Part shown: piece after piece, positions 5,267 to 58,541 of the stretch
How the letters are laid out: the number at the start of each line of letters is the position of its first letter
Position numbering within the stretch: the stretch's first letter is position 1
Source: Chlorobiota bacterium
GTDB taxonomy: Bacteria; Bacteroidota; Ignavibacteria; OLB7
NCBI GenBank assembly: GCA_028287785.1
Contig: JAQBOZ010000020.1
Span: 66,738 to 130,737, forward strand
Direction: 5' to 3'
DNA: 64,000 nucleotides
Position numbers and translations under genes: made by a program
Notes under the pieces: generated by a model
Databases searched by the model: none
What the model was told of the DNA's origin: nothing
What the model saw: the letters and a program-made list of their open reading frames with translations, nothing else

Positions 5267-5295
5267 GATGAGGGATTGAATTCTGATGATCCCGA

Positions 5296-40570: not shown

Positions 40571-40826
40571 TATTCGATGTGCAGATTATGCCGCGATTAT
40601 GCTCCGACGGTAAAATACGGCCTGGCCGGAGCGATTCAATATTCGTCGGGACGATTCATGAATTGCCCCGCCCCCGGCGCAAAAAAAATCGTATCATCGG
40701 GAACCGAATTCCATCAACGCGCTCCAACGCGGTTGATTCGATCTCATCCCCATCGCAATTACCATTGGATCGTCGCGCGCTGACTATCCCCTTCCCTTCA
40801 TGTTCCGCTATCCGGAGATATTGTTC

Positions 40827-42401
40827 ATGCGAACTGGCAACGCCGTTACATGCCGAAAAACGCTCGGGAGCATTGCGAGCTGGCTTATGCCGATGCTCCT
40901 TCTGCTCGCCATCACCACCGGCGCCCGAGCCCAGGGAGGCGGGTTCCTCGTTATCACCCCCGCCGGAGGCGAGAACTTCGTGGTCGATTCCACGGTACAG
41001 ATCCGGTGGCTGGCGCAGGGAGTTACCGGCCAGTTGAACATCGACTACTCGGTCGATAGCGGCGCGGTCTGGAAACGGATCGACAGCGTAACCGCAAGGA
41101 CGGGGCTGGACTCGATGTCGTGGGTTGTCCCCAATGATACCTCCAGGCGCGCGCTGGTCCGGATCACCACGGCGGATGGCACCAAGACGGCCCGCTCGCG
41201 CAGGGTCTTCTCCATCACGCTGAAGCCGCTCCCGGCGCTTACGGTGATCTACCCGAACGGCGGCGAGCTGTTCGGCGCCGATTCCACCGTCAAGATCCGC
41301 TGGAACGCCACCAACATCACCGGCGATCTTCTGGTCGATTATTCGATCGACAGCGGCAGGACATGGAAACCGATCAAGAAGGTGGCGGCGCGCAGCGGCC
41401 CCGATACGCTGGCCTGGGTGATCCCGCATGATACCACCAGCCAGGCGTTCGTCCGCGTGATGGCGGTCGACAGCTCCATCAGGGACGCATCCAACCGGAC
41501 GTTCACGATCCGCGCATCGGTAAATCCGAAGATCCAGCTGCTCTTCCCCAACGGCGGCGAAGCATTCCAGGCGGATTCCACGACAATGATTCGCTGGCAG
41601 GGGCAGGACCTGACCGGCGCACTCAACATCGAATTTTCGACCGATGGCGGAACAAGCTGGAAGCTCATCGGCAGCAAACAGCCACGGACGGGAAATGACT
41701 CGCTCCCCTGGAAGGTGCCGAATGATTCCACGACCAAAGCGCTGGTCAGGGTCAGCAGCGGCCCGCTCCGCGATACCTCGGACGCGGTCTTCACCATCAA
41801 CCCGCGCCCGCCCATCTCCCTGAAACTCCTCTATCCGAATGGCGGCGAGAAGTTCGGCACCGATTCGACGATCGCCATCGTCTGGAACTCGAAGAACAAC
41901 AAGGGAATGCTGGCGATGAACTTCTCATCCGACGGCGGTGCCACATGGACACTGATCGACAGCGTGATGCCGAAGCCGGGGAACGACTCGATGTTCTGGA
42001 CCACCCCGAAAACCCTCAGCAAGAACGCCCGGCTGGCGATCACCACGGCCGATGGGCTGGTGAGCGATACCACCGATGCCCCCTTCTCGATCGTTTCGAA
42101 CAACGTGGGGCCAGGCGATGGCGTCGATTATCAGTCGGGCGGTTCCGGGTCGCTTGCGGCGTATCCGAACCCGACGGCCGCCGAAACCGACCTGCGCTGG
42201 GAACAGCGGAGCGCCGGCGAGGCAAGCGTGGGCATCTACGACCGGAGCGGCCGACTTCTCATGACCGCCGCCGCCGGACATCGCGAGCCCGGAGAGCAGC
42301 ATTATCGTCTGTCGACGACGGGGCTGCCGGCCGGCATCTATCTGGTCGAAATCCACTCTGGCATGAATCGTGCGAATTGCGTGGTCACGCTGGTGCGATA
42401 A
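40827..42401 (+). CDS. Secreted protein with five tandem about 90-aa repeats and T9SS C-terminal sorting domain
   Basis: Signal peptide. Five repeats: (I/L)xxPNGGExF..DST..IRW......G.L.IDYS.D.G.TWK.I....AR.G.D...W.VP.D.....LVR. C-terminal Por tail (AYPNPTAAETDL...LPAGIYLVEIHSG). Alternative ATG at 40800. Confidence 0.7.
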   Translation: MRTGNAVTCRKTLGSIASWLMPMLLLLAITTGARAQGGGFLVITPAGGENFVVDSTVQIRWLAQGVTGQLNIDYSVDSGAVWKRIDSVTARTGLDSMSWVVPNDTSRRALVRITTADGTKTARSRRVFSITLKPLPALTVIYPNGGELFGADSTVKIRWNATNITGDLLVDYSIDSGRTWKPIKKVAARSGPDTLAWVIPHDTTSQAFVRVMAVDSSIRDASNRTFTIRASVNPKIQLLFPNGGEAFQADSTTMIRWQGQDLTGALNIEFSTDGGTSWKLIGSKQPRTGNDSLPWKVPNDSTTKALVRVSSGPLRDTSDAVFTINPRPPISLKLLYPNGGEKFGTDSTIAIVWNSKNNKGMLAMNFSSDGGATWTLIDSVMPKPGNDSMFWTTPKTLSKNARLAITTADGLVSDTTDAPFSIVSNNVGPGDGVDYQSGGSGSLAAYPNPTAAETDLRWEQRSAGEASVGIYDRSGRLLMTAAAGHREPGEQHYRLSTTGLPAGIYLVEIHSGMNRANCVVTLVR

Positions 42402-42517: not shown

Positions 42518-43945
42518 ATGGCAGAAGCAACCAAACGCTCCGCGGCGCTCGCGTCGGTGGGATCGGGGCTGATCCTCACTATTCTGAAAGTGGTCGTCGG
42601 TTTCGCGACCGGAAGCCTTGCAATCGTATCGGAGGCGGCCCACTCCGGGCTTGACCTTCTGGCGGCCATGCTGACCTTTTTCGTGGTCTACATCGCCGAG
42701 CAGCCACCGGACGAGAATCATCCCTACGGACATGGAAAGGCGGAGAGCCTCGGGGCCCTTGCCGAGTCCGCCCTGCTGGTGGCGACGGCCATCTGGGTGC
42801 TGTGGCATGCGTACGAGCGGATCTTCGTTTCGCCGGCGATCCCGGAAATCACCGTCTGGTCCTTCGTGGTCATGATCATCTCAATGGTGGTGGACTTCAC
42901 CCGGTCGCGGTCGCTGAAACGGGCCGCCGAACTTCACAAAAGCCAGGCGCTCGCCGCCGATGCCGCCCACTTCAGCAACGACCTGCTCGGCTCGGCGGTG
43001 GTCATCCTCTCGCTCGTTGTCCTGGAGATCGCGAAACGGACTGACGCCATCCCGCAGTGGCTTGTCCTGCGCGCCGATGCGCTGGGAGCCGTGGTGGTAG
43101 CATTGATCGCGCTGAAAGTCTCCTATCGTCTCGGTCGCGAGAGCGTCCATGCGCTGATGGAGGATGTGCCGGGCGATCTCGGCAGACGGCTGACCGCGAA
43201 GGTCCGCGCCGTTCCCCAGCTTGTCTCCGATTCCGTCCGCGTCCGCGTCCGGTTCGTGGGGGAACAGGCGTTTGTCGATGTGGCGTTGCAGGTGCCGCGC
43301 ACGCTTACGCTGGAGGCCAGCTATCAGGTGAGCGAGGAGGTGCGGGGGGTGATCAGGAGCGAGCTTCCCTTCGCCGATATCGTGGTAAACGTGGAGCCGG
43401 CCCGGATCGAGGGGGAGGAATACGCGGCGGCGGTCTACGCGGCGGCAAATCGCCTCAGCCTTGCCATCCATCATCTCAGTCTTCTTCTGACAAGGGACGG
43501 CCTCCGCATCCTTCTCGATCTTGAGCTTCCCAGCCATATGTCGCTGCTCGACGCCCACTCGGTCTCCGAGCAGCTGCGCGACACCCTGGCCCGCGAGCTG
43601 CCGGAGGGCTCCGCGATCAGCATCCATCTGGAATCGCGCGATCTTCACGTCTGCCCGGCCGTGCGGAGCGAGCAGATCAACAACGATGTCCGCGCCGTGC
43701 TCGGCTCGATCGCCAACGGCGATCCGGTCACCGATGTCAACAGCTATCTGATCGAGAACGGGACGGTGATCTCCCTCTCCTGCGCCTACAGCGGCGATAC
43801 CCCGCTCTCCACCGTTCATCAGCGGATGTCGGAGCTGGAGAGCGCCATTCGCGAGCGCGTCCCATCAGTCTCCCGCATCCATGTGGCTCCGGCGCCCTTC
43901 CCCGTTAATCCGCCTTCCCGAACTGATACGTCAGACGCGCAATGA
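42518..43945 (+). CDS. Cation diffusion facilitator (CDF) family metal efflux transporter with extended C-terminal cytoplasmic region
   Basis: CDF signature (HSGLDLLAAMLTFFV...HPYGHGKAESLGAL). Six TM helices, then about 250 aa of cytoplasmic domain. Confidence 0.85.
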   Translation: MAEATKRSAALASVGSGLILTILKVVVGFATGSLAIVSEAAHSGLDLLAAMLTFFVVYIAEQPPDENHPYGHGKAESLGALAESALLVATAIWVLWHAYERIFVSPAIPEITVWSFVVMIISMVVDFTRSRSLKRAAELHKSQALAADAAHFSNDLLGSAVVILSLVVLEIAKRTDAIPQWLVLRADALGAVVVALIALKVSYRLGRESVHALMEDVPGDLGRRLTAKVRAVPQLVSDSVRVRVRFVGEQAFVDVALQVPRTLTLEASYQVSEEVRGVIRSELPFADIVVNVEPARIEGEEYAAAVYAAANRLSLAIHHLSLLLTRDGLRILLDLELPSHMSLLDAHSVSEQLRDTLARELPEGSAISIHLESRDLHVCPAVRSEQINNDVRAVLGSIANGDPVTDVNSYLIENGTVISLSCAYSGDTPLSTVHQRMSELESAIRERVPSVSRIHVAPAPFPVNPPSRTDTSDAQ

Positions 43946-46676
43946 CCAGACGCCCCAGGGCCGGCGCCCCCACGAACTCCTGATGCCTGCGCGTGAAGAT
44001 GCTCCCATCGGTGTCGGCGAAGGTCAGGAGGTTCTGCGCGCTGATCGTGAGCCCCATGCCGGGAATCCACGGAAGCTGATAGCCCAGATTGAGATCGATC
44101 ACCGAATAGGGAATGACATCGCCGACGTAGACGCCGGAGTTGACGGGAAAGCCATCGACATGGCGGAGGCGGACGTCGCCGTTGAAGCCGATTGTCGCGT
44201 TCCGGTATTCCGCGCCGAGCGTGTACTTGAACTTCGGCGAGTTGAGCGATAGATCGGAGACGTTGTCGAGGTTGCGGAAGAAGTTCTTGTCGGTGTAGGA
44301 GAACGACCCGCTCAGCGTCAGCCCGTCGGCCACCGCCGCCTGCACGGAGATATCGCAACCGTAGAGCGTGATGCTCCCGTAGTTCCGCGACGAAAGAAGG
44401 ATGGCCGCGGGATCGTTCGGGTTGCTTGCCTGATACGGGTTGCCTGCCACGTTCGGCGCCACCGTGCCGATGGGGATCTTCGTGATAAAGTCCGCCACCG
44501 ATCCAAGCGCCTCGGAGATTTTCGAGGTGTCCGCCCCGCGAGCCTGAAGCTGCCGGAGCAGATACCCGTAGAGCGAATCCCGATTGAAGAACGCGTTGGG
44601 GGTGATCACCTGGAGCGGCCCGATGAAGTTGTCGTACTGCGATCGATAGAGATCGACGCTGACCGAGATTCTTTCGGCGATCAGCCCCTTGTAGCCAAGC
44701 TCGATGGTGGAGTTGATCGTGGGCTTCAACGATGCCACATTGAACGCCCCGCGCGATGGATCGAACCCCCTGGTCTGCTGATTGAGCTGCCGCAGCTCCA
44801 CCACCGACGCTGGTGGCGGCGGCACGCTGTCCAGGCTTGCGCCGAATGCCTGGGAGAGCGGGCGGAGCGTATCCTGAAGCTTTCTCCAGATGGGGAGAAG
44901 GCTGTCCAGCGGGAAGGCGAGATTCGGGTCCTGCCCCAGCGCCGCGTAGGAACGGATATACGGCTGATTGCCCGGGCTGAGCGTGAAGGTGAACCCCTCC
45001 GGCGGAACGCCCGATGCGCGAACGTTGACCCCCTGGCTGGAGCCGCCGATGAAGTCGAGAAAAAGATCGTTGGTGGTCGGCGCGCTGTAGGCGCGGTTGA
45101 AGGTCGCGCGGATTGCCTGGTCCGGCGCGGGGGTGTAGACCAGCGCGGCGCGCGGCGAGAAGATAAGCCCATCGAGCTTGCTGTGATGATCCAGTCGCCC
45201 GGCCACCACCAGATCCAGAAGATCGCGCGCCAGCATCGCCTCCCCCTGGAGATATCCCCCGACCTCCACGATATCATCGCTGTTCTCGAACCGGCCGGTG
45301 ATCGTCCCGTCGGTGACGGGGGTGGTATGGAGATAATCGACCCCGTACGCCAGCCGGCCAAGCCCCTCGAACGCCGTCGAGTGCTGTGCCTGCACCACGA
45401 AGAGCGTGGATCTATCGACCAGGGGCTGCCCGGTCCGGAGCGTATAGCTCTCCCGGGCATTGCTCTGGTTGAGAAATGCCTGCACGAAGAAATCCTTGTA
45501 GAGCCCCCGCACCTGATAATAGTTGTAGAGCCAGTCGCGCGCCTGCGCGCCTCCCACGCCGGTGATCTCGGGGTTCCGCAGCGCGGCATTCGTGCCAAGC
45601 TGGAAGATCAGCATCATGTTATCCACCGGGATATAATCCACGCGCAGCTCGCCACCGACCCGGCGGATAGTGCTGTCCCGAAGCCCGATCTTCAACGTAT
45701 CGGGGTTGAGGCCGGTATGGAGCGAATCGGCGAGGAAGATCGCCCTGGCGCGCTCGGTCACCTCCACCGAATCGACATATCCCCAGTCCTCCCCCTGCAT
45801 ATACTGAGCGGAGACCTTGTAGCCCAGCCGGTCGCCGTAGGTGCCGGCAAATCGCCCCATCCCCTGCACCACTCCGCGCTCCCCCGCCGCCAGGGAAAAC
45901 CACGCTCCGGTGGAGGCAAAGGGGGAACGGGTGATCATGTGGAGGACTCCGTTGGCGGTGTTCGGCCCGTAGAGCGCCGAGCCGGGACCGCGGATCACCT
46001 CGATCTGCTGGAGATCCTCGTTGACGAGCGGGATGAAGTTGTGGGCGTTGAACCGGAGCGACGGCACCGATGCGATCCGGTTGTCCACCAGCGTCATCAG
46101 CGTGCCGGAAAACGCGTTGTTGAAACCGCGCGCCACCACCATGTTCTGCGTCAGCCCCGACTGCACGATATCGAGCCCCGGAACCGAACGGAGGTGATCC
46201 ACGCCGCTCAGCGCCGGCCGCTCCTCGATATGCCTGGGATCGACAACGGTGACCGAGGCCGGGGCGCGCGTGATCTTCTCGGGCCGCCGCGATGCCGAGA
46301 CAACCACCTCGCTCTGATTCAGCGTCCCCTCCTTCAACGCCGCGTCCACGCGAAGCGTGGCCCCCTCCCGCAGATCCAGCGAATCGCTTTCGAACAGCCC
46401 GTAGCCAATGTAGCTCACCTGCACGCGATAGCGGCCGGGGGGAATTCCTCTCATCATGTAGTAACCGTCGCGTGCGGAGATTGCCCCCCCCTGCCGCGTC
46501 GTGGCGCTGCCGCCGATCAGCCGGATGGTGGCCCCCGCGAGCGGCCCGCCCGAACCGGCATCGGTAACGCGACCGGTCACGGTGCCGTTCTGTGCCACGG
46601 CCGGAATCGCCGCGGCGATCGACAGCAATGCAAAAAGAAGGGCGCGCGCGCCGGAAGAGAGAATCAAGCGAACCAT
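43905..46676 (-). CDS. TonB-dependent outer-membrane receptor with N-terminal carboxypeptidase-regulatory-like domain
   Basis: Signal peptide. CarbopepD_reg-like GTVTGRVTDAGSGGPLAGATIRL. Plug motifs (VVVSASRRPEKITRAPASVTVV; LRSVPGLDIVQSG). C-terminal ...RLTYQF aromatic terminus. 3' end overlaps the CDF gene by 41 bp on the opposite strand. Confidence 0.85.
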   Translation of the reverse strand: MVRLILSSGARALLFALLSIAAAIPAVAQNGTVTGRVTDAGSGGPLAGATIRLIGGSATTRQGGAISARDGYYMMRGIPPGRYRVQVSYIGYGLFESDSLDLREGATLRVDAALKEGTLNQSEVVVSASRRPEKITRAPASVTVVDPRHIEERPALSGVDHLRSVPGLDIVQSGLTQNMVVARGFNNAFSGTLMTLVDNRIASVPSLRFNAHNFIPLVNEDLQQIEVIRGPGSALYGPNTANGVLHMITRSPFASTGAWFSLAAGERGVVQGMGRFAGTYGDRLGYKVSAQYMQGEDWGYVDSVEVTERARAIFLADSLHTGLNPDTLKIGLRDSTIRRVGGELRVDYIPVDNMMLIFQLGTNAALRNPEITGVGGAQARDWLYNYYQVRGLYKDFFVQAFLNQSNARESYTLRTGQPLVDRSTLFVVQAQHSTAFEGLGRLAYGVDYLHTTPVTDGTITGRFENSDDIVEVGGYLQGEAMLARDLLDLVVAGRLDHHSKLDGLIFSPRAALVYTPAPDQAIRATFNRAYSAPTTNDLFLDFIGGSSQGVNVRASGVPPEGFTFTLSPGNQPYIRSYAALGQDPNLAFPLDSLLPIWRKLQDTLRPLSQAFGASLDSVPPPPASVVELRQLNQQTRGFDPSRGAFNVASLKPTINSTIELGYKGLIAERISVSVDLYRSQYDNFIGPLQVITPNAFFNRDSLYGYLLRQLQARGADTSKISEALGSVADFITKIPIGTVAPNVAGNPYQASNPNDPAAILLSSRNYGSITLYGCDISVQAAVADGLTLSGSFSYTDKNFFRNLDNVSDLSLNSPKFKYTLGAEYRNATIGFNGDVRLRHVDGFPVNSGVYVGDVIPYSVIDLNLGYQLPWIPGMGLTISAQNLLTFADTDGSIFTRRHQEFVGAPALGRLVIARLTYQFGKAD

Positions 46677-46916: not shown

Positions 46917-47501
46917 TCAATCGTGATCGTGGTCTCTGGCGCGCGCGCGCCATTCCCCCGCCAGCAGCATATACATATCATGCCCCTCCCAGACGCCGTT
47001 GATCTGCACCATCGCCGGTGAATGGCCGATCAGCGTGAACCCGCATTTCTTCAGCACCCGCGCCGATGCCGCGTTGCGCGGCATCACGTTGGCCTCCAGC
47101 CGGTGCAGCCCAAGATCCTCGAACGCATACCGTATCAGCTTCCTAAGCCCGGCCGTCATCAGCCCGCGCCCCATATACTCCGCGTCGATCGAATAGCCGA
47201 ATCGCCCGTTCTGAAACACCCCCCGCTCGATCGACGTGAGCGAGATGGTCCCGATAAGCTCCGCCGCCGATGTGAACATGCCGAAGCGTATCTCCCGCCC
47301 CTCATCCCTCAATATCGCTCCCCGCTCCAGACGCTCCCGCTGAACCTTCGTCGTGAAGAACTCGGCGGGGGCAAGCGGCGACCACTCGCGGTGCGCCTCC
47401 CGGTTCCGCCGGTAGTACGAGGCAAGCAATGGGGCATCCTCCTGCTCCAGCGGACGGATGAAATACGAAAGCGGAGGCTGAACCGATGGGCTCTTCTTCA
47501 T
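46917..47501 (-). CDS. GNAT-family N-acetyltransferase (RimJ/RimL-like)
   Basis: ATG at 47501 (MKKSPSVQPP...); the track ORF begins upstream at 47609. GNAT motifs (GTISLTSIE...GYSIDAEYMGRGLMTAGLRKLIRYAFEDLGLHRLEANVMPRNAASARVLKKCGF). Confidence 0.8.
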   Translation of the reverse strand: MKKSPSVQPPLSYFIRPLEQEDAPLLASYYRRNREAHREWSPLAPAEFFTTKVQRERLERGAILRDEGREIRFGMFTSAAELIGTISLTSIERGVFQNGRFGYSIDAEYMGRGLMTAGLRKLIRYAFEDLGLHRLEANVMPRNAASARVLKKCGFTLIGHSPAMVQINGVWEGHDMYMLLAGEWRARARDHDHD

Positions 47502-47584
47502 GGGATCGTTTATGATACGATAACGGCGCGGGGGAATCCATTGAGCCGAAGTATACTGAACATGCGGCTGACACGGAACATCGG

Positions 47585-47700
47585 TGACGCGGGGCATCGC
47601 CCCGCGCACCGGGGATTGCGCCCCTCCGGGGCTTGAGAAGGCGGGCGGGCGTGGCGGATGAGATCCTTCAAGAGTCGGTTAGCACGAAGTTTGATGCGTG
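47585..47700. repeat. REP-like intergenic repeat (module I family copy)
   Basis: gacgcggggcatcgccccgcgcacc ggggattgcgcccctccggggcttgag..., two stem-loops. Closest to the 39440 copy. Confidence 0.4.
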
Positions 47701-47845
47701 AGATGGCTTCCCCCCCGGGTGGCACCGATGATGGTGAACCGGACCGATCGGCTAACTTGAGCCGACAGCCTAATCGTGCCCCCGTCTCGTATATGGTCAA
47801 TGGTGCGGATGGAGTCTCCGCGCCGCTACATTTATCAGCGATCCG

Positions 47846-48940
47846 ATGCCAAACATTCTCGCGGTCGGCACCGTCTTGCCGGACAATATTCTCACGCAAC
47901 GGGAGGTGCAGCAGTTCGCGCACAATATCTACGGCGAGGCATTTCACGATATCGACAGGCTGGTTTCGGTGTTCGACAACGCGGAGATCGAGCAGCGGCA
48001 TTTCTGCGTTCCGCTGGACTGGTTCGGCAGCTCGAAAACGTTCGAGGAGAAGAACGATCTCTACATCAGCAACGCCATCTCCCTGTCGAGCGCGGCCATC
48101 GAGCTGGCGCTGACGAACGCGGGGCTGGCTCACGCCGATATCGACTACCTTATCTTCGTCTCCACAACCGGCATCTCCACGCCGAGCATCGACGCGCAAC
48201 TGATCCAGCGGCTGCCGTTCCGCCGCAACATCAAGCGGCTGCCGATCTGGGGGCTTGGCTGCGCCGGCGGTGCCGCATCGCTCTCCCGCGCCATGGATAT
48301 CGCCAGGGCAAACCGATCGGCGCGGGTCCTTGTGGTGATCACCGAGCTGTGCGGGCTTACCTTCCTCCGCAACGACCTCTCGAAGTCAGCATTGATCGCC
48401 ACCTCCCTCTTCGCCGACGGATCGGCGGCGGTGGTGGTCGGCGGCGATGACGTGCCGGCCGGCCCGCGCGCGGCGGCGCTGATCTCATCGCGCACAACCA
48501 CGATGGATGACTCGCTGGACGTGATGGGATGGGATATCGGCAACGATGGGTTCAAGGTGATGATCTCCCGCGATATCCCGGCGATCGTCAGGACCTTCAT
48601 GCGCGATTCGATCGAGGCGTTTCTGGAGGAGGAGGGCCTCGCAATCGGCGATATCGATCATTTCATCGCCCATCCCGGCGGGGCCAAGGTGCTCCAGGCG
48701 TACATCGATTCGCTCGATCTGCCGCCGGAGAAGCTGGATCATACGCGGTCGGTCCTCCGCACATGCGGGAACATGTCGGCATGCTCGGTGATCTTCGTGC
48801 TCGAGAAGTTTCTGGAGGAGATCGCCTCACGCCGGGACCCCCAACCGGATACGGAGTACGGCCTGCTGGGGGCGCTCGGCCCCGGCTTCGCCTCCGAGCT
48901 GGTGCTCCTCCGCTGGCAATCACCGGCCGAATCAACCTGA
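47846..48940 (+). CDS. Type III polyketide synthase (chalcone/stilbene synthase family)
   Basis: Active-site Cys in LGCAGGAASL. FIAHPGGAKVL (His) and GNMSACSV (Asn) complete the Cys-His-Asn triad. About 364 aa. Confidence 0.85.
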   Translation: MPNILAVGTVLPDNILTQREVQQFAHNIYGEAFHDIDRLVSVFDNAEIEQRHFCVPLDWFGSSKTFEEKNDLYISNAISLSSAAIELALTNAGLAHADIDYLIFVSTTGISTPSIDAQLIQRLPFRRNIKRLPIWGLGCAGGAASLSRAMDIARANRSARVLVVITELCGLTFLRNDLSKSALIATSLFADGSAAVVVGGDDVPAGPRAAALISSRTTTMDDSLDVMGWDIGNDGFKVMISRDIPAIVRTFMRDSIEAFLEEEGLAIGDIDHFIAHPGGAKVLQAYIDSLDLPPEKLDHTRSVLRTCGNMSACSVIFVLEKFLEEIASRRDPQPDTEYGLLGALGPGFASELVLLRWQSPAEST

Positions 48941-48946
48941 CGCGAC

Positions 48947-49249
48947 ATGCTGTTGACGGCGTATTCGATATTCCTCGCCAATTTCCTCTTCGGTGTCATG
49001 GTGAAATCGAGGGTGATCGACAGCGCCCGGTTCCGATGGTTCCATCACACGCTCTATTTACTGGTGATGGCGGGGATCGCCGGCGCGGTGATCGAGGCTA
49101 TCATCGCCGGCTCGTGGCGTGGCCTGCTGCTGGCCGGGATGGGGGCGATGCTGCTGCTGATGCCCCGATTCCGTGGTCGCGGCAACGGCCACTGGATCTA
49201 TGCCACCTGCTGCTGCGTCGCCTACTCGGCAATCGTCTTCTGGCCGTGA
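48947..49249 (+). CDS. Small integral membrane protein (three TM helices) immediately after the type III PKS
   Basis: 100 aa, hydrophobic (FLANFLFGVMV; LYLLVMAGIAGAVIEAIIAG; LLLAGMGAMLLLM). 6 bp after the PKS stop. Confidence 0.45.
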   Translation: MLLTAYSIFLANFLFGVMVKSRVIDSARFRWFHHTLYLLVMAGIAGAVIEAIIAGSWRGLLLAGMGAMLLLMPRFRGRGNGHWIYATCCCVAYSAIVFWP

Positions 49250-49275
49250 CCGGACATCATTTTTTTACCCGACCG

Positions 49276-49818
49276 ATGAAATTCGAACGACTCTCCCGCG
49301 AAGTGATCTACCGCAGCCCCTGGGTGAACCTCTTCGTCGACGCCGTCCGCTTCCCGAACGGGTCGATCATCGAGCGGCATCATCTCCTCGATTTCGAGCG
49401 CGCCGCCGTCACCGTGATCATCGATGACGGCGATGGCAATATCCTGCTGGTGAAGGTCCCCCGCTACACGACCGGGGAGGCGGACTGGGAGCTGCCGGCC
49501 GGCAACGTCGATCCCGGCGAATCGATGACGGAGGCGGCGGAACGTGAGGCGTTCGAGGAGACCGGCTACCGGACCGGGGGACACCGGGAGCTGCAATCGT
49601 TCTACCCGATGAACGGCATCGCCAACCGCACCTCCAGCGTGGTCCGCTGCGTTATCGACGGGGAGGCGGGGAGCTTCGATCAGGAGGAGATCGCCGACCG
49701 GCGATGGTTCTCCCGGAGGGAGATCGTGGAGATGCTCCGGCACGGGACGATCAGGGATGGATACTCGCTCGTGGCGCTCCTCTTCTATCTGAACGGCGAA
49801 GAGCTTGAACATCCATGA
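49276..49818 (+). CDS. NUDIX hydrolase
   Basis: Nudix box GNVDPGESMTEAAEREAFEETG. ATG at 49276. Upstream part of track ORF 48529..49818 is non-coding. Confidence 0.8.
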   Translation: MKFERLSREVIYRSPWVNLFVDAVRFPNGSIIERHHLLDFERAAVTVIIDDGDGNILLVKVPRYTTGEADWELPAGNVDPGESMTEAAEREAFEETGYRTGGHRELQSFYPMNGIANRTSSVVRCVIDGEAGSFDQEEIADRRWFSRREIVEMLRHGTIRDGYSLVALLFYLNGEELEHP

Positions 49819-49870
49819 CGAAATCCGCCGCGCCCACGATATCGATCAATCAAACCAACAACCGACGCAC

Positions 49871-50665
49871 GTGGAACTACTCGACGCAATCCGCAACAGA
49901 CGGACAACCAACTCGCGATTTCTCGAAAAGCCTCTCTCCGACGACCATATACGGACCATCATCGAGGCGGCGAGCTATGCCCCCAGCCACTTCAACTCGC
50001 AGCCCTGGCGGTTTGTGCTGATACGGAGCCGTGAGGGGCGCGACAGGCTGGGGAAGATCGCCGGGCGATCGATGCGGGCAGTGATGGAGAAAGGGGAGTT
50101 CTGGAAGCGCTATCTGAAGTATTTCCGATTCAGCAGAGAGGAGATCGACAAGAGCGGCGATGGGATTTATATCGATAACATGCCGGCGCCGCTGCGGCCG
50201 TTTATCCGCTATATCTTCTCGGAGAAGGGGGCCGAGGTGATGAACAAGCTCCGCGTCCCCTACATCCTGGCGATTGATTCCAAGCGGCTGATCACCACAT
50301 CGCCATTGATCCTGGCCGTGCTGCTGACGAAGGAGGAGTACAGGAAGGGGGAGCTTTCCGGGATGTATTCCATGCTGGCGCTCGGCATGGCGATCGAGAA
50401 CATCTGGCTGACCGCCAACTCCCTCGGCGTCGGCGTGCAGTTCATCTCCCTCCCGATGGAGGCCGGCGGCGAGCACTGGGCGGAATGCGTGGCGATGATC
50501 GATCCGCCGGAGAACTACGAGGTGATAGCCCTCTTCCGCCTTGGCTACGTGGACCCCGATGCCAAACGTCCGACGATCGACTGGTCCAGCAAGCAGCGGA
50601 AGGATATCTCGCAATTCTGTTTTGATGAGACATTCGGCAACGGATGGCGGTCGGGGCGGGTTTGA
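49871..50665 (+). CDS. Nitroreductase-family protein
   Basis: SHFNSQPWRFVLI motif. The track start (TTG at 49805) overlaps the NUDIX gene. An in-frame GTG at 49871 gives the typical nitroreductase N-terminus (M)ELLDAIRNRRTTNSRF, so the start was placed there by inference. Confidence 0.7.
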   Translation: MELLDAIRNRRTTNSRFLEKPLSDDHIRTIIEAASYAPSHFNSQPWRFVLIRSREGRDRLGKIAGRSMRAVMEKGEFWKRYLKYFRFSREEIDKSGDGIYIDNMPAPLRPFIRYIFSEKGAEVMNKLRVPYILAIDSKRLITTSPLILAVLLTKEEYRKGELSGMYSMLALGMAIENIWLTANSLGVGVQFISLPMEAGGEHWAECVAMIDPPENYEVIALFRLGYVDPDAKRPTIDWSSKQRKDISQFCFDETFGNGWRSGRV

Positions 50666-50678
50666 AACCCGCCCCGAC
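50650..50678. repeat. 29-nt GC-rich hairpin, copy 1 (gtcggggcgggtttgaaacccgccccgac); probable bidirectional terminator or REP
   Basis: 11-bp perfect stem. Overlaps the nitroreductase stop codon. Near-identical copy at 51236..51264. Confidence 0.5.
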
Positions 50679-50694
50679 GGCGCTTCGCTCCATA

Positions 50695-51198
50695 TCATCC
50701 GCCATACGTAAACAGATTCTCCGGATGCTCCTCCACCCGGCCGGTGCTGATGATATGCCGCACCGTCACGCCGCGAGCCGCCAGCGCGTCGGCAACCCAG
50801 AAGCGATGGCAGTGGCTGGGGTCGGACTCCGCGCACATCAGCGCCACGCGCCGCTCCGATGCCAGACGAAGCGCCCGCTCCATCCCCCGCTTGAACGGCT
50901 CGGTCCCCATGTAGCCCGCAAACCCGCGCGAACGCTCGCTGCACGACTTCGCGCGGTCGATCACCGCCTGCGGTGGCTTCACCCCGCCCAGTTCCGTGCA
51001 ATGCTCGTAGATAAGCCCATGACCGGGGATCATCGCCTCCATCTCCTCCCTGTTGAACTGCGGGTTGTACCGTGAGTATGGTATCCTCCTGATATCGAGC
51101 AGCAGCTCGATCCCGTTCTCCTTCAGCAGCTCCACCAGCTCATCCCGTGTCCGCGTTGAATGGCCTATCGTGAATATCTCAAGTTCCTGCCGGCTCAT
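50695..51198 (-). CDS. DUF488-family protein
   Basis: ATG at 51198; the track ORF begins upstream at 51270. MSRQELEIFTIGHSTRTRDELVELLKENGIELLLDIRRIPYS matches the DUF488 N-terminal pattern (IYTIGHS...LVDVR..P.S). Confidence 0.7.
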   Translation of the reverse strand: MSRQELEIFTIGHSTRTRDELVELLKENGIELLLDIRRIPYSRYNPQFNREEMEAMIPGHGLIYEHCTELGGVKPPQAVIDRAKSCSERSRGFAGYMGTEPFKRGMERALRLASERRVALMCAESDPSHCHRFWVADALAARGVTVRHIISTGRVEEHPENLFTYGG

Positions 51199-51235
51199 GC
51201 GCTTTGTATTGATTGAATTGATCGTTAGCGTCGGC

Positions 51236-51264
51236 GTCGGGGCGGGTTTAAAACCCGCCCCGAC
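51236..51264. repeat. 29-nt GC-rich hairpin, copy 2 (gtcggggcgggtttaaaacccgccccgac)
   Basis: Perfect palindrome. Lies upstream of the DUF488 start, between it and valS. Confidence 0.5.
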
Positions 51265-51426
51265 GTACACGACATCGACGTGCTGCTACTGACTCCACTA
51301 TAACGAATGAAACGCCCGCAACGTCTGAAAAACGTTCCGGACGGATGAAAAATCGCGCTGGTTTCAACCTGTGCGGCGCTACCTTCCGTACAGGCTTCCG
51401 CCGTATATTCTTCGCCATAATAATTC

Positions 51427-54180
51427 ATGGAACAATCGCGAGCGAACCCGATGGCTGAACTTCCCAAAGCGTACACCCCGGCCGATGCCGAGGCCCGATG
51501 GTATCCCTACTGGTATGAACATCACCTTTACGACGCGGAGGTCAACCGGGACCGCCCGCCCTATACCATCGTCATCCCCCCTCCCAATATCACCGGCATG
51601 CTGACGCTGGGGCATGTCCTCAACAACTCGATTCAGGATCTCTACATCCGCTGGCATCGGATGCGCGGGTTCGAGGCGTGCTGGATACCGGGCACCGATC
51701 ATGCCGGCATCGCCACGCAGACCAAGGTGGTGAACGCGCTGGCGGACGAGGGAATCCATCACCGCGATCTGGGCCGCGAGAAGTTCGTGGAGCGGGTCTG
51801 GGAGTGGCGCGAAAAATACGGCGGCATCATCTTCAGCCAGCTCCGCGCCCTCGGCGTCTCGGTGGACTGGCGCCGCGAACGCTTCACTCTTGATGAAGAA
51901 TTGAACCAGGCGGTGACCGAGGTCTTCGTCCGCCTGTACGACAAGGGGCTGATCTACAAGGGGAAGAAAATCGTCAACTGGTCCCCCAAGGCCCAGTCCA
52001 CGCTGAGCGATGAAGAGGTAAAGCACAGGGATGTCACCGACCGGATGTATACGCTCCGCTATCATCTCACCGATGGAAGCGGCACCATCATGGTCTCCAC
52101 CGCCCGGCCGGAGACGATCTTCGGCGATGTGGCAGTGGCGGTGAACCCCGCCGATGAACGCTATACCGCCATGCTCGGCAAAACCGTCACCGTCCCGGTC
52201 GCGGGACAGCAGGTGACGCTGATCGCCGACGAGCATGCCGATCCCGCGTTCGGCACCGGCGCGGTGAAGATCACCCCGGCGCACGACCCGAACGACTACG
52301 AGGTGGGCCTCCGCCATAACCTCCCGATGCCGAACACCATCAACCCGGACGGCACGATGAACGAGCTGGCCGGCCCGCTGGCCGGGATGGACCGCTTCGC
52401 GGCGCGCCGTGCCGCGGTGAAGATGCTGGAGGAGGCCGGGCTGATCGAGAAGAGCGAGGAGTACGTCCACTCCGTCGGCTTCTCGGAGCGGGGCGGCGAG
52501 CAGATCGAGCCCTATCTCTCCGATCAATGGTTCGTGGCGATGAAGCCGCTCGCGGAGCCGGCGCTGAAAGCGGTGCTGGATGGTGATATCAAATTCTATC
52601 CGGAGCACTGGACCAAGACCTACGAGCACTGGATGGCGAACATCCGCGACTGGCCGATCTCCCGCCAGCTCTGGTGGGGACATCGCATCCCCGTCTACTA
52701 TCTGGAGGATGGCCGCCAGACCGCCGCGCGATCCGAGACGGAGGCATGCGCGAAGCTGGGCGTCCCGCAGGGAACTCCCCTGCAACGCGATGAGGATGTG
52801 CTGGATACCTGGTTCTCCTCATGGCTCTGGCCCTTCTCCGTCCACGGCTGGGGGAGCGATAAAAAGAACGATCGCGATCTCCAGTATTTCTATCCGACCG
52901 ATCTTCTGGTGACCGGCCCCGATATCATCTTCTTCTGGGTGGCCCGGATGATCATGGCCGGGTTCGAGTTCATGCGCGATGAGCCGATGGCCGATGGCGC
53001 GCCGCGCACCTCGGTGGCCGAGCTGATCCCCTTCAAAACCGTCTACTTCACATCGCTGATCCGCGACAAGGAAGGGCGGAAGATGTCGAAGCAGCTCGGC
53101 AACTCCCCCGATCCGCTCGACGTGATCCGCGATTACGGCGCCGATGCCCTCCGCTTCACCATCCTCTACCTGGCACCCAGCGGCCAGGATGTCCGCTTCT
53201 CAGCGGAGATGTGCGAGCTTGGCCGGAACTTCGCCAACAAGATCTGGAACGCCGGGCGCTTCCTCCTGATGAAACGGGATGAGGCCGGCGCCGATCCGGT
53301 GGCCTATCCGCAGCGCCTGGATGAGCTTGAGCCGATCTCTTCATCGGATCGATGGATTCTCTCCCGGTTCCATTCGGTGCTCGGCAATGTGGAGTCCGCC
53401 CTGGGCGCCTACCGGATCAACGAGTACACAAAGCTCCTCTACGATTTCGTCTGGAGCGATTTCTGCGACTGGTACGTGGAGCTGCTGAAGACCGAGCTGG
53501 CGAACAGCGAGGACGCCGCCCGCTCCAGACAGATGATGAACTTCGCCATCGGCCTGTTCGATCAGGTGCTGAGAATGCTCCACCCAATCATCCCGTTCGT
53601 GACCGAGGAGTTGTGGCAGAATCTGGCCGGACGGACATCGGGGGATTCGATATCGATCGCGGCGTTCCCGGTCTCCGATCAATCGCTGGTTTCGACGGAG
53701 GTCGAGCGGGAGTTCGAGCTGCTCCGTGGCTGCTCCGAGGCGATCCGCAGGATGCGGAACGAGGCGAACGTGGCCCCGTCAAAGCTGGTCGATGTGACGA
53801 TCAAGGCGGCCGATCCGGTCGGCTTCGCCATGCTCCGCCGCAGTTGCGAGCTGATGCGCCGGATGGCGAGAATCGATGCCCTCCTCATCTCCGACGATGC
53901 CGGGAAGCCGAAGCTCTCGGTCACCGAGGTGGTCCGCGGCAACGATATCCATGTCCATCTTGAAGGGCTGATCGATATCGAAAAGGAGAGGGCGAAGACG
54001 GAGAAGGAGATCGCGCGTCTGGAGGGACAGGCCCGCGCAACCGAGGGGAAGCTCTCCAACGAGCGGTTTACCGCCAACGCCCCGGCGGAGGTGGTGGAGA
54101 CCGAGCGGGAGAAGCTCCGCAACTATCAGGACACGCTGGTCAGGCTTCGGCAGACGCTGGAGCAGTACGCGGTGATGTGA
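51427..54180 (+). CDS. valS: Valine--tRNA ligase
   Basis: Class-I HIGH region (PPPNITGMLTLGHVLNN), KMSKS (RKMSKQLGNSPDP), editing domain, C-terminal coiled coil; 917 aa. Confidence 0.9.
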   Translation: MEQSRANPMAELPKAYTPADAEARWYPYWYEHHLYDAEVNRDRPPYTIVIPPPNITGMLTLGHVLNNSIQDLYIRWHRMRGFEACWIPGTDHAGIATQTKVVNALADEGIHHRDLGREKFVERVWEWREKYGGIIFSQLRALGVSVDWRRERFTLDEELNQAVTEVFVRLYDKGLIYKGKKIVNWSPKAQSTLSDEEVKHRDVTDRMYTLRYHLTDGSGTIMVSTARPETIFGDVAVAVNPADERYTAMLGKTVTVPVAGQQVTLIADEHADPAFGTGAVKITPAHDPNDYEVGLRHNLPMPNTINPDGTMNELAGPLAGMDRFAARRAAVKMLEEAGLIEKSEEYVHSVGFSERGGEQIEPYLSDQWFVAMKPLAEPALKAVLDGDIKFYPEHWTKTYEHWMANIRDWPISRQLWWGHRIPVYYLEDGRQTAARSETEACAKLGVPQGTPLQRDEDVLDTWFSSWLWPFSVHGWGSDKKNDRDLQYFYPTDLLVTGPDIIFFWVARMIMAGFEFMRDEPMADGAPRTSVAELIPFKTVYFTSLIRDKEGRKMSKQLGNSPDPLDVIRDYGADALRFTILYLAPSGQDVRFSAEMCELGRNFANKIWNAGRFLLMKRDEAGADPVAYPQRLDELEPISSSDRWILSRFHSVLGNVESALGAYRINEYTKLLYDFVWSDFCDWYVELLKTELANSEDAARSRQMMNFAIGLFDQVLRMLHPIIPFVTEELWQNLAGRTSGDSISIAAFPVSDQSLVSTEVEREFELLRGCSEAIRRMRNEANVAPSKLVDVTIKAADPVGFAMLRRSCELMRRMARIDALLISDDAGKPKLSVTEVVRGNDIHVHLEGLIDIEKERAKTEKEIARLEGQARATEGKLSNERFTANAPAEVVETEREKLRNYQDTLVRLRQTLEQYAVM

Positions 54181-55313: not shown

Positions 55314-55337
55314 CGCTATATTTTCGTATATTTGTGC

Positions 55338-56279
55338 ATGGAAAAGGAAAACTACACACCGCGCACCCTTCAGGAAGCAATCGTCCACTACTCCAACCCG
55401 GATAATGCACTCGCATTTATGATCCGTCTTCGGTGGCCGGACGGTATCACGTGCCCCCGTTGCGGATCGTGCGAGCATAGCTTTTTGACGACGCGCCGCG
55501 TGTGGAAGTGCAAGGGATGTAAGAAGCAGTTCTCCGTTAAGGTCGGCACCATCTTCGAGGATTCTCCGCTCGGTCTGAACACGTGGCTTGCCGCCGTGTG
55601 GCTCATCACGAACGCCAAGAACGGCGTAAGCTCATGCGAGATTGCGCGGGCACTTGGCATCACACAAAAGAGCGCGTGGTTCGTCTTGCATCGTATCCGC
55701 ATCGCGATGGAAACGGGCACCATTGAGAAGCTGAAGGGCCAGGTTGAAGCCGATGAAACGTACATCGGCGGCAAGTACGGGAACATGCACAGGATCAAGC
55801 GCGCTCAAAAGGAGCAGGGACGCGGCGCTGTCGGGAAGGTTATCGTGATGGGGTTCTTGGAGCGTGACGGCGCGGTACGGGCAAAGGTCGTGAAGAGCAT
55901 CAAGAAGACCATCTTGCACGCGGAAGTCCGGCTGAACGTCGAAGCTGGTACGGAGTTGCTTACCGACAACCTTGCGAGCTACGAGGGCTTGGAGCCGGAA
56001 TACACGCACGAGAGCGTCAACCACGCCGCTGAACAGTATGTACGGGGCCATGTGCATACCAACGGCATAGAGAACTTCTGGAGCTTGCTCAAGCGGACGC
56101 TGAAGGGCACGTATGCGCAGGTTGAGTCCCATCACCTTCAGGCATATCTTGACGAACAGATATTGCGGTTCAATCTTCGCAAGGGAACGGATAAGAGCCG
56201 GTTCTTGCGCGTGGTTGGTGGAGTGTCGGGAAAGAGACTAACTTACAAGCAGTTGATTGGTCGGGGTGGTAACATCTAG
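55338..56279 (+). CDS. IS1595-family transposase (N-terminal zinc-ribbon plus ISXO2-like DDE domain)
   Basis: CPRCGS...CKGCKKQFSVKVGTIFEDS zinc ribbon. DETYIGGK and downstream DDE-domain residues. ATG at 55338; the track ORF begins at a TTG at 55332. Confidence 0.85.
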   Translation: MEKENYTPRTLQEAIVHYSNPDNALAFMIRLRWPDGITCPRCGSCEHSFLTTRRVWKCKGCKKQFSVKVGTIFEDSPLGLNTWLAAVWLITNAKNGVSSCEIARALGITQKSAWFVLHRIRIAMETGTIEKLKGQVEADETYIGGKYGNMHRIKRAQKEQGRGAVGKVIVMGFLERDGAVRAKVVKSIKKTILHAEVRLNVEAGTELLTDNLASYEGLEPEYTHESVNHAAEQYVRGHVHTNGIENFWSLLKRTLKGTYAQVESHHLQAYLDEQILRFNLRKGTDKSRFLRVVGGVSGKRLTYKQLIGRGGNI

Positions 56280-56290
56280 GAGGTACGGCA

Positions 56291-56464
56291 ATGGATAAGG
56301 AAGGTGATGATAAGAATCATCAATCAGAGGAATACACTCGCTTTGAACAGGCGATGCGAACGATTCTAGGGGCACCGAAGAAGAAGGTTGACGCGAAGAT
56401 GGAGGAATTAAAGAAGAAGCGCAAAGGGATAAATAAAAAAGGCAGTACAGATAAGGATAGATAA
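56291..56464 (+). CDS. Small basic hypothetical protein (57 aa) inside the IS element
   Basis: ATG 12 nt after the transposase stop. Lys-rich. Not in the supplied ORF track; read directly from the sequence. Confidence 0.3.
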   Translation: MDKEGDDKNHQSEEYTRFEQAMRTILGAPKKKVDAKMEELKKKRKGINKKGSTDKDR

Positions 56465-56499
56465 AGGGTTCATATAGAGCATTCGCTCAATATGCGCAC

Positions 56500-57123
56500 T
56501 TATTTCTTTGTGTTCAATGCACGAATTCGCTCTGTCAGTTTATATACCCCAGTTGATGGATTCCCGCCAATGGTGCTATGTCTCTCGTGCATCTTGTCTA
56601 ATTCAGAGGCCCTTGTAACTGCAAGCTCATAGTTTGGCTGAATCTGATCAAGTGGAATGAGCTTTACATAACCCGGCAAGTGTGTTTTGCAATGGGATTG
56701 AACCACTCCTCTATCAATATAAGCTCGGTGATCGGCAAAATGCAGGTATACCCAAAGCTCAAAGCAAGGATTCGATATTGCTAGCTGTATGTTGTGCGCA
56801 TTAGCCTGCTGACATGCATCTGCAATATTAGGATGCTCATCGACATCGAAGCAGCACCATACTTCATCATACTTTAGATTATTATCCTTTTCTCTTCTTG
56901 CTTCCTGTTCCGCTCTTTTCTTCTCAGCTACAGCTGCTTCAACTAGGGCTTTTGGTACCATACCACATTCGCCAATCTTGATCTCAACGAGCCGGTTACG
57001 TTCCATCCTGCAAAAAGCAATGAAATACTCACGTTCGGTAACAACTCCTTCGCAGAGAATTAGCAGTCTTTTTTGAACATCCCGAAATGGTCTTCGGCGA
57101 GCAAGGCTAGCTTTTCGCTTCAC
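56500..57123 (-). CDS. RloB-like (AbiLii-like) protein
   Basis: RloB-family N-terminus ...RLLILCEGVVTEREYF, central DEVWCCFDVDEH, and LAISNPCFELWVYLHF. GTG start at 57123 overlaps the upstream ATPase gene by 17 bp. Confidence 0.75.
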   Translation of the reverse strand: MKRKASLARRRPFRDVQKRLLILCEGVVTEREYFIAFCRMERNRLVEIKIGECGMVPKALVEAAVAEKKRAEQEARREKDNNLKYDEVWCCFDVDEHPNIADACQQANAHNIQLAISNPCFELWVYLHFADHRAYIDRGVVQSHCKTHLPGYVKLIPLDQIQPNYELAVTRASELDKMHERHSTIGGNPSTGVYKLTERIRALNTKK

Positions 57124-58393: not shown

Positions 58394-58541
58394 AAGGTGA
58401 CCTGAGATAGGATTAGACGATATTGCGGACTAGACGCAATTTAGGTAAGAAAGTTGCAATTATCCAATGTAGATCGCATTACTATGCAATGATGGATGCT
58501 ATCGCCTCGTCCAAAGCAATCTGAACGAGGCGATACCCTCG

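Follow-up and report, generated by a model that had tools for sequence, protein, structure and literature searches.

Type III polyketide synthases (PKSs) make phenolic lipids that harden the envelopes of cysts and spores, change antibiotic susceptibility and, in actinobacteria, act as alternative respiratory quinones. In every characterised phenolic-lipid pathway that we know of, the PKS is paired with a methyltransferase, and some pathways add an FAD-dependent oxidoreductase. The two-gene arrangement is seen in bpsA-bpsB of Bacillus subtilis and dquA-dquB of Sporomusaceae, where a PKS and an ICMT-like O-methyltransferase yield alkylpyrone or alkylresorcinol methyl ethers, BpsB and DquB being the enzymes that O-methylate the PKS product (PMC9827899). 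Operons that combine a PKS, a methyltransferase and an FAD-dependent oxidoreductase are found in Streptomyces griseus (srsABC), mycobacteria and Streptomyces (pkqABC), cyanobacteria (hidABC) and planctomycetes, with alkyl(methoxy)benzoquinones (polyketide quinones) or hierridins as products (PMC9927152, PMC10896814). Two residue rules have been considered for the PKS itself: the presence of Ala or of Arg/Lys after the catalytic His is taken to distinguish CoA-bound from ACP-bound starters, and the ArsB Trp281 position to distinguish resorcinol from pyrone formation, though the latter rule fails for DquA (PMC9827899).

We compared these systems with a locus in the 64-kb stretch of DNA analysed here (the window), which belongs to a metagenome-assembled genome of the Kapabacteria/Chlorobi group. 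The first-pass annotation had placed a type III PKS, a small membrane protein, a NUDIX hydrolase and a nitroreductase in it, and all four open reading frames were found on the + strand at the positions proposed (Table 1). The PKS matched Pfam Chal_sti_synt_N (9.2e-29, 100.9 bits) and Chal_sti_synt_C (1.3e-18, 67.9 bits), both above the gathering cut-off of 27 bits for these domains. The motifs quoted in favour of a full Cys-His-Asn triad were present, with GCAGGAASL starting at residue 138, HPGG at 276 and GNMSAC at 308, and Cys139, His276 and Asn309 aligned with the GLGC, HPGG and GNLS motifs of the Mycobacterium tuberculosis alkylpyrone synthase PKS11. The latter was also the best solved relative (PDB 4jao; E 1.2e-64, 36% identity over 342 aligned residues), a sequence relationship that is only moderate, and its genomic context, which we take to be the mycobacterial pks cluster, is unlike that of the window.

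Table 1. Features of the PKS locus, in window coordinates
Feature	Position	Strand	Description and basis
Divergent intergenic region	47610-47845	.	Presumed promoter of the PKS operon; between the GNAT gene (-) and the PKS gene (+) on the ORF map
Type III PKS	47846-48940	+	364 aa; BpsA/PKS11-like long-chain alkylpyrone/alkylresorcinol synthase (predicted); Pfam, PKS11 match
Catalytic Cys139 codon	48260-48262	+	Motif GLGCAGGAA; alignment to PKS11
Catalytic His276 codon	48671-48673	+	Motif AHPGGAK, Lys281 at +5; alignment to PKS11
Catalytic Asn309 codon	48770-48772	+	Motif CGNMSA; alignment to PKS11
TM100	48947-49249	+	100 aa; predicted four-helix membrane protein, partner of PKS and NTR; AF2, locus comparison
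NUDIX hydrolase	49276-49818	+	180 aa; ADP-ribose/NDP-sugar pyrophosphatase-like, lineage-specific insertion; Pfam
NTR	49871-50665	+	Nitroreductase-fold FMN protein, BluB/IYD-like; probably 264 aa from GTG 49871, ORF open from TTG 49805
Perfect 19-nt palindrome	50655-50673	.	Over the NTR stop codon; 2 matches vs 0 expected

Identity to Bacillaceae BpsA-like PKSs was 45-48%, and full-length identities of 44-49% were obtained with 10 Bacillaceae PKSs encoded upstream of BpsB-like ICMT genes, a comparison that covers 10 BpsA-like loci, with B. subtilis BpsA itself outside the set. The window PKS has the same triad as the bpsA-bpsB and dquA-dquB systems and shares with them the Lys at position +5 of the catalytic His. 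It did not group tightly with any characterised enzyme; such a grouping is what the first-pass annotation had named as counting against its reading. Judged by its domains, its triad and its likeness to BpsA and PKS11, the enzyme is a true type III PKS of the kind that makes phenolic lipids in bacteria, as had been proposed, and its predicted product should be a membrane-resident alkylpyrone and/or alkylresorcinol, two classes that the sequence does not separate.

The next gene encodes TM100, which starts exactly 6 bp past the PKS stop codon, as noted previously. It had been read as a three-TM protein, but the AF2 model (pLDDT 96.6) contains four helices (2-20, 30-53, 58-70 and 80-98), so that a four-helix bundle is predicted. 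No match was found for it in Pfam or NCBIfam, and a Pfam scan of 25 family members at E<=1 returned scattered noise only. A profile scan of 1.84 billion protein representatives yielded 53 representatives, all small and stand-alone, with no informative fusions; a direct word-based search found 2 proteins only, and a metagenome scan with a 6-sequence TM100 alignment only two nearly identical Thermochlorobacter loci. The TM100 family is therefore rare, and Pfam has no model for it. Three of its residues (G16, H33 and Y93) are invariant and three more (H34, H82 and A86) nearly so, and the helix order of the model together with the positive-inside rule would place the conserved His and Arg on the cytoplasmic side.

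In the Kapabacteria loci TM100 takes the slot next downstream of the PKS, which in Bacillaceae belongs to BpsB, and its RFRxxHHxLY segment was repeatedly paired with the ICMT motif YRFxxHPNY in hhalign and HMM searches, as might be the case if the usual ICMT methyltransferase gene behind the PKS had decayed into TM100 or were its paralogue. We rejected this origin as highly implausible. Two profile-profile comparisons of TM100 with ICMT (hhalign) gave probabilities of 0.4% and 0.8% (E 0.07-0.14), the 100-aa four-helix bundle has no counterpart of the C-terminal RIxxEE motif of ICMT, and TM100 coexists with an intact ICMT in four loci from Thermochlorobacter, a Myxococcales metagenome-assembled genome (MAG) and a Rubrobacter MAG.

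These four loci are part of a wider pattern. In Thermochlorobacter (L020 and L026/L027) the gene order was PKS-ICMT-TM100-NTR, with gaps of 24-32 bp in L020, and the ICMT was 40-47% identical to ICMT-type proteins of Bacillaceae. In the Myxococcales MAG (L025) and the Rubrobacter MAG (L028) it was TM100-NTR-PKS-ICMT, with entirely different flanks and a 4-bp NTR/PKS overlap in both; the small protein of L025 was recognised as a member of the TM100 family at E 1.4e-7. TM100 was present in all 12 loci with both PKS and NTR (the window and 11 others), in none of the 13 PKS-only loci (L004-L013, L015, L017 and L021) and in none of the 3 NTR-only loci (L022-L024). Close relatives of the PKS are among those without TM100 or NTR nearby (L015, L017 and L021, 55-61% identity). 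PKS and NTR matches also paired up on equally long contigs in 10 more cases, some of these contigs being shorter than 3.5 kb. Neither TM100 nor NTR occurred in any of the 10 Bacillaceae loci examined, each of which has a PKS followed by a gene for a 176-194-aa ICMT-type protein. We conclude that TM100 and NTR are genuine conserved partners of the PKS, in a cassette that recurs in at least three bacterial phyla and is apparently undescribed. In the searchable literature we found no description of a type III PKS with a nitroreductase or a small membrane protein as partner, Rubrobacter and Thermochlorobacter included, which bears out the earlier view that these partners are non-standard.

The full cassettes (L020, L026, L025 and L028) resemble bpsA-bpsB in carrying an ICMT gene adjacent to the PKS, and differ from it in the addition of TM100 and NTR. 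In the Kapabacteria loci (the window, L001-L003, L016, L018 and L019) PKS, TM100 and NTR lie within ~3.5 kb despite differing insertions, and in the window the three are on one strand within a few kb (47846-50665), as they are in the 11 other cassette loci. ICMT was absent from all loci of this type, and tblastn with two ICMT queries found no homologue in the 64-kb window, in agreement with the earlier remark that the usual membrane methyltransferase partner is missing. No other methyltransferase was found in the window operon, and there is no FAD-monooxygenase domain beside the PKS, whose neighbours are TM100, NUDIX, NTR, GNAT and DUF488. The Kapabacteria lineage, including the window, has lost the ICMT methyltransferase. 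The gene set is not peculiar to this genome: the locus is a trimmed version of the four-gene cassette of Chloroherpetonaceae, the Myxococcales MAG and the Rubrobacter MAG. The product had been described as not predictable from known clusters, but the context does constrain it, pointing to a phenolic lipid of the BpsA/BpsB kind and one additional redox reaction.

The NUDIX gene does not belong to this cassette. Its product matched Pfam NUDIX (5.5e-20, 72.2 bits against a cut-off of 21.1), and the Nudix box GNVDPGESMTEAAEREAFEETGY, read from the translation, is intact by the GX5EX7REUXEEXGU criterion. Among the 12 cassette loci the gene was found only in the window and in a relative with 95% identity (L001), and was absent from the other 10 (L002, L003, L016, L018-L020 and L025-L028). 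In L002 and L003, whose PKSs are 74% and 70% identical to that of the window, NTR directly follows TM100. Elsewhere in Kapabacteria other genes have been inserted, an endonuclease-III-like gene between PKS and TM100 in L016 and L018 and DoxX plus AraC between TM100 and NTR in L019. The four genes of the window are co-directional and tightly spaced (gaps of 6 bp and 26 bp, then 52 bp or a 14-bp overlap), which could suggest a novel three-enzyme tailoring set of TM100, NUDIX and NTR, with CoA esters or nucleotide-linked intermediates as possible targets of NUDIX. This is very improbable, since the distribution of the gene already largely refutes it and the best NCBIfam matches of the protein, all sub-threshold (NudE and YffH/AdpP-type models), are of the ADP-ribose and NDP-sugar pyrophosphatase types and not CoA pyrophosphatases. 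With NUDIX limited to the window and L001, and relatives having no NUDIX or other insertions, it is a recent unrelated insertion and not a tailoring gene, as the first-pass annotation had assumed it to be; it is the one neighbour for which a lack of relation to the PKS, which that annotation had also considered, was borne out. In annotation it should not be counted within the biosynthetic cluster.

NTR has the features of a flavoprotein. Its open reading frame (49805-50665) matched Pfam Nitroreductase (PF00881) above threshold at 4.7e-25, consistent with the nitroreductase fold, and the FMN-type RRxxxxRF motif is present. Homologues are 261-268 aa long and start at the equivalent of GTG 49871, and the gene therefore more probably spans 49871-50665, without overlap with the NUDIX gene. 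The subfamily (265 aa, more than 1500 members) is very conserved and carries a specific insertion of ~45 aa with an aromatic/basic stretch, FWKRYLKYFRF. The top structural neighbours of NTR are IYD and BluB, which act on phenolic or isoalloxazine rings, and a Ser aligned with BluB Ser167 is invariant.

This relationship raises the question of whether NTR is a divergent BluB-type enzyme (a 5,6-dimethylbenzimidazole synthase or another O2-dependent flavin-fragmenting enzyme) that serves cofactor metabolism rather than polyketide tailoring. At two Chloroflexi loci an NTR homologue comes after a His_Phos_1 gene whose score falls slightly short of the CobC cut-off (139-145 vs 162.9 bits), and these CobC-like neighbours of PKS-free homologues are also ambiguous with PspA. 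NTR itself differs from BluB in score (63.1 bits against a cut-off of 150 for the equivalog model TIGR02476), in the ~45-aa insertion, which BluB lacks, and in its invariant Thr12 (RRT), which aligns with the aspartate of the BluB RRD motif, presumably the catalytic Asp32. A BluB-type function would moreover leave the linkage with PKS and ICMT in three phyla unexplained, and we give it very little credence.

In Chloroflexi and Ignavibacteria, homologues of NTR with 50-55% identity were found whose surroundings, up to 6 kb away, contained neither PKS nor TM100, and they are as similar to the window NTR as are the cassette copies of Myxococcales and Rubrobacter; the chemistry of NTR is therefore not PKS-specific. 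These homologues bear on the possibility, raised in the first-pass annotation, that the neighbours are conserved independently of the PKS; TM100 was found only beside PKS and NTR together. The PKS-free homologues also suggest a second reading, in which TM100 and NTR are a redox unit of their own at the membrane, such as a general quinone or flavin reductase, that lies near the PKS through inherited gene order only. From the window to L025, identity is 56% for NTR and 39% for the PKS, making NTR the more conserved of the two; unrelated insertions between cassette genes are tolerated in the Kapabacteria loci, and synteny also covers genes around the cassette. Within Kapabacteria it extends to the TonB receptor, GNAT and DUF488, and conservation within that lineage alone is therefore weak evidence. 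Against mere proximity, the four families are found together in three phyla, in two orders and between unrelated flanks, with the 4-bp overlap in L025 and L028, and the restriction of TM100 to loci with both PKS and NTR is hard to reconcile with a unit independent of the PKS. We consider inherited gene order an unlikely explanation, though a more serious one than a BluB-type function.

On balance, and with only slightly more confidence than doubt, we favour the view that the locus derives from a conserved four-gene phenolic-lipid cassette by loss of the methyltransferase, with redox tailoring by NTR and TM100. By homology to BpsA, DquA and PKS11, the PKS would condense a long-chain fatty-acyl starter with malonyl-CoA. 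Comparative genomics identifies TM100, predicted to lie in the inner membrane, and the FMN-type NTR as its dedicated partners. NTR may work at the membrane, with TM100, and perhaps its own FWKRYLKYFRF insertion as well, anchoring it or supplying its substrate. There it would subject the phenolic head group to a redox reaction, most likely hydroxylating or oxidising it to a hydroquinone or quinone, or else reducing the quinone. The role of NTR would then be that of the FAD-dependent oxidoreductases SrsC, PkqC and HidB in the operons of PKS, methyltransferase and oxidoreductase; this role is proposed by analogy with SrsC and PkqC, and the contact between TM100 and NTR is likewise a proposal. Where the cassette is complete (Thermochlorobacter and the Myxococcales and Rubrobacter MAGs), the BpsB-like ICMT would O-methylate the product. 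With ICMT lost in the Kapabacteria lineage, the product here should be unmethylated. NUDIX, ADP-ribose-pyrophosphatase-like and inserted between TM100 and NTR in the lineage of the window only, would stand outside the pathway.

The full cassette thus follows the same plan as srsABC, pkqABC and hidABC, a tight operon that combines a PKS and a methyltransferase with a single flavoprotein oxidoreductase. It differs from them in that the FAD enzyme is replaced by a flavoprotein of the FMN nitroreductase fold (BluB/IYD-like), unlike the FAD-dependent hydroxylase fold of SrsC, PkqC and HidB, and in that a dedicated four-helix membrane protein of an unannotated family is added; the window lineage further lacks the methyltransferase. 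This points to a different tailoring chemistry, or to a different delivery of the lipid substrate to a soluble-type flavoenzyme. More tentatively, TM100 and NTR might constitute an unrecognised two-component membrane-bound enzyme that converts alkylresorcinols to alkyl-hydroquinones or quinones, a non-homologous replacement of SrsC, PkqC and HidB. If so, a new route to polyketide quinones would exist in Chlorobi-group bacteria, in some Myxococcota and in Rubrobacter, and such quinones could be auxiliary membrane electron carriers. For two uncharacterised families, TM100 (~50 clusters among 1.84 billion proteins) and the NTR subfamily, the cassette offers a first clue to function.

Finally, we looked for signals that could delimit the operon. 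A scan of 47400-51500 with a sigma-70-type consensus found no promoter, this consensus being uninformative for a Bacteroidota/Chlorobi-type organism. A weak terminator-like hairpin at 49239-49254, between TM100 and NUDIX, is at chance level (1 found vs 2.1 expected). The palindrome over the NTR stop codon has a second copy at 51241-51259 and is likely a bidirectional terminator or a REP-like element that closes the operon.

The interval 47846-50665 was found to hold four co-directional ORFs on the forward strand (table). ORFs, Pfam domains and motifs confirmed the gene order of the first-pass annotation, namely type III polyketide synthase (PKS), small membrane protein, NUDIX and nitroreductase, and the PKS motifs it quoted were present (Cys139, His276, Asn309). 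The membrane protein, TM100, does follow the PKS directly, but AF2 predicts four helices rather than the three TM segments proposed. The nitroreductase-fold gene (NTR) was likewise present, but its start was corrected to a probable GTG, because all homologues begin at the equivalent position. Upstream, the minus strand encodes a TonB-dependent receptor and a RimJ-like GNAT; downstream are genes for DUF488, ValRS, an AraC/GyrI regulator and an IS1595 transposase. Polyketide metabolism is not suggested by these flanking genes (ORF map, Pfam).

Features of the window and of the comparison loci (L), with their coordinates
Sequence	Feature	Position	Strand	Remarks
Window	533-aa ORF	40800-42401	+	
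Window	TonB-dependent receptor	43905-46676	-	divergent to PKS
Window	Type III PKS	47846-48940	+	364 aa; both chalcone/stilbene-synthase Pfam domains
Window	TM100	48947-49249	+	100 aa, hydrophobic; 6 bp 3' of PKS
Window	NUDIX	49276-49818	+	180 aa; Pfam 5.5e-20; Nudix box intact
Window	NTR	49871-50665 (probable)	+	264 aa from GTG 49871; ORF open from TTG 49805
Window	Palindrome copies	50655-50673; 51241-51259		19 nt
Window	DUF488 ORF	50695-51270		191 aa; runs through second palindrome copy
Window	IS1595-type transposase ORF	55332-56279		followed by low-GC stretch; feature span 55332-58400
L016	HhH-GPD	7140-7808		4-bp overlap with PKS stop codon
L018	HhH-GPD	7131-7799		4-bp overlap with PKS stop codon
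L020	TM100	7631-7936		
L022	His_Phos_1	5259-5900		just upstream of NTR homologue
L023	His_Phos_1	4898-5542		just upstream of NTR homologue

We compared neighbouring genes at 28 loci reached via PKS, NTR and TM100. TM100 was found in 12/12 loci holding both PKS and NTR, in 0/13 PKS-only loci and in 0/3 NTR-only loci. Candidatus Thermochlorobacter (L020, PKS 53% identical) has the order PKS-ICMT-TM100-NTR with gaps of 24-32 bp, ICMT being a BpsB-like methyltransferase family, and the same four genes occur at two loci (L026, L027) from a metagenome scan with TM100 as sole query. The order is small protein-NTR-PKS-ICMT in a Myxococcales MAG (L025) reached via NTR, where NTR and PKS overlap by 4 bp and the small protein fits the TM100 profile (E 1.4e-7). 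A Rubrobacter MAG (L028), reached via a distant TM100 relative, carries overlapping genes in the order TM100-NTR-PKS-ICMT, with flanks wholly unlike those of other cassettes. Three phyla hold the four families (Bacteroidota/Chlorobi group, in two separate lineages; Myxococcota; Actinomycetota), with two gene orders overall, and inherited synteny fails to explain this recurrence across phyla and orders. Ten further PKS/NTR match pairs had equal-sized longest contigs, some <3.5 kb, suggesting more adjacent pairs. No ICMT homologue was found across the whole 64-kb window; the simplest history would be an ancestral four-gene cassette whose methyltransferase was later lost in the Kapabacteria lineage.

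Among Kapabacteria-type loci, one with a 95%-identical PKS (L001) came from Candidatus Kapaibacterium; a protein identical to TM100 is on record from a 'Chlorobi bacterium' MAG. L002 and L003 (PKS identity 74% and 70%) showed the order GNAT-PKS-TM100-NTR without NUDIX, TM100 and NTR being 21 bp apart in L002. An endonuclease-III-like HhH-GPD gene is inserted between PKS and TM100 in L016 and L018 (PKS 65% identical), while in L019 (61%) TM100 is separated from NTR by DoxX and AraC genes; L015, L017 and L021 (55-61%) have neither TM100 nor NTR with the PKS. The cassette region tolerates insertions. NUDIX was present only in the window and L001 among the loci compared, and is therefore a recent insertion rather than the tailoring gene it had been taken for; it is irrelevant to the module. 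The two insertion sites differ (HhH-GPD between PKS and TM100, NUDIX between TM100 and NTR), so that sister lineages have each gained a different nucleotide- or DNA-'housecleaning' gene in the same cassette. The TonB receptor accompanies the PKS at every Kapabacteria/Ignavibacteria-type locus (L001-L003, L015-L019, L021), even those without TM100 and NTR, and thus adjoins it more persistently than the tailoring genes do. The cassettes of Thermochlorobacter and of the Myxococcales and Rubrobacter MAGs lack this receptor, and its adjacency is probably plain synteny.

The PKS itself is ordinary. Its best solved relative is M. tuberculosis PKS11 (E 1.2e-64, 36% identity), with whose catalytic motifs the Cys139/His276/Asn309 motifs align. 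The enzyme falls within the bacterial long-chain phenolic-lipid group. Beyond its own lineage, a genome scan matched Bacillaceae enzymes (44-49% identity), and in every case the next gene encodes an ICMT-type membrane methyltransferase of 176-194 aa, as in bpsA-bpsB. BpsA and DquA are alkylpyrone/alkylresorcinol synthases, and BpsB and DquB are ICMT-like O-methyltransferases acting on their products (PMC9827899). Lys281, five residues past the catalytic His, might correspond, by offset, to the position held to mark ACP-bound starters. Resorcinol versus pyrone is not predictable, because the Trp281 rule breaks down for DquA (PMC9827899).

NTR belongs to the nitroreductase superfamily (Pfam). 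Identity was 69-82% among Chlorobi-group cassettes, falling to 50-58% against the copies in the Myxococcales and Rubrobacter MAGs; 62 of ~264 positions were invariant in 36 sequences. The protein is unusually conserved. Assignment as BluB was rejected: NTR scored 63 bits against a 150-bit equivalog cut-off and has an invariant Thr in place of the RRD aspartate. It retains a Ser aligned with BluB Ser167 and carries an insertion of ~45 residues between its conserved halves. With its many invariant aromatic and basic positions (FWKRYLKYFRF), this insertion may be an interfacial membrane-binding element. Homologues without PKS or TM100 (50-55% identity) occur in Chloroflexi and Ignavibacteria; the enzyme is therefore not confined to polyketide pathways. 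At two Chloroflexi loci (L022, L023) the adjacent His_Phos_1 genes scored 139-145 bits, slightly below the CobC (alpha-ribazole phosphatase) cut-off of 162.9, and matched PspA too. This hints faintly at a possible cobalamin lower-ligand setting for PKS-free members of the NTR family.

TM100 gave no match in Pfam or NCBIfam. The family is rare: 1.84 billion 50%-identity clusters yielded 53 representatives (E<=1e-3), each an unfused protein of 60-193 aa, and the named ones are from Chloroherpetonaceae, Bacteroidota and Rubrobacter MAGs. The L020 gene was uncalled in the contig's public gene set and recovered only by tblastn; such genes are probably under-annotated, and database counts understate the family. 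Across 25 diverse members, G16, H33 and Y93 never varied and H34, H82 and A86 hardly did. The confident AF2 model (pLDDT 96.6) is an up-down four-helix bundle. H33, H34, H82 and conserved arginines are predicted to cluster at the cytoplasmic membrane face, because of the helix order, the Arg-rich loops (20-30 and 73-79) and the positive-inside rule. No kinship with ICMT was detectable (hhalign probability <1%).

The cassette genes are genomically linked, and the TM100-NTR pair is a conserved, apparently undescribed accessory module. We propose that the PKS would make a membrane-resident long-chain alkylpyrone or alkylresorcinol, and that TM100 would contact NTR and position it at the membrane for flavin-dependent redox chemistry at the phenolic head group; in full cassettes ICMT would O-methylate the product, a step lost in the window. 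Known operons combining PKS, methyltransferase and FAD-oxidoreductase (srsABC, pkqABC, hidABC, planctomycetal; PMC9927152, PMC10896814) follow a parallel logic, but NTR is non-homologous to their FAD-oxidoreductase. Searches of open-access full text, for type III PKS with nitroreductase and for the taxa involved, turned up no account of the arrangement.

Exactly two copies of a perfect 19-nt palindrome, GGCGGGTTT(G/A)AAACCCGCC, are present (0 expected). They bracket the DUF488 gene, and the first runs across the NTR stop codon. DUF488 probably has its true start deeper inside the ORF (MSRQELEIF, about 51198), and the L001 orthologue (167 aa) matches this shorter start. GC drops from about 0.61 elsewhere to 0.46 at 56-58 kb, suggesting a recently acquired island ~5 kb downstream of the cassette. 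The 533-aa ORF has about four internal repeats of ~100 aa each, and its C-terminal end resembles, by eye, a T9SS sorting signal, consistent with a Bacteroidota/Chlorobi-group origin.
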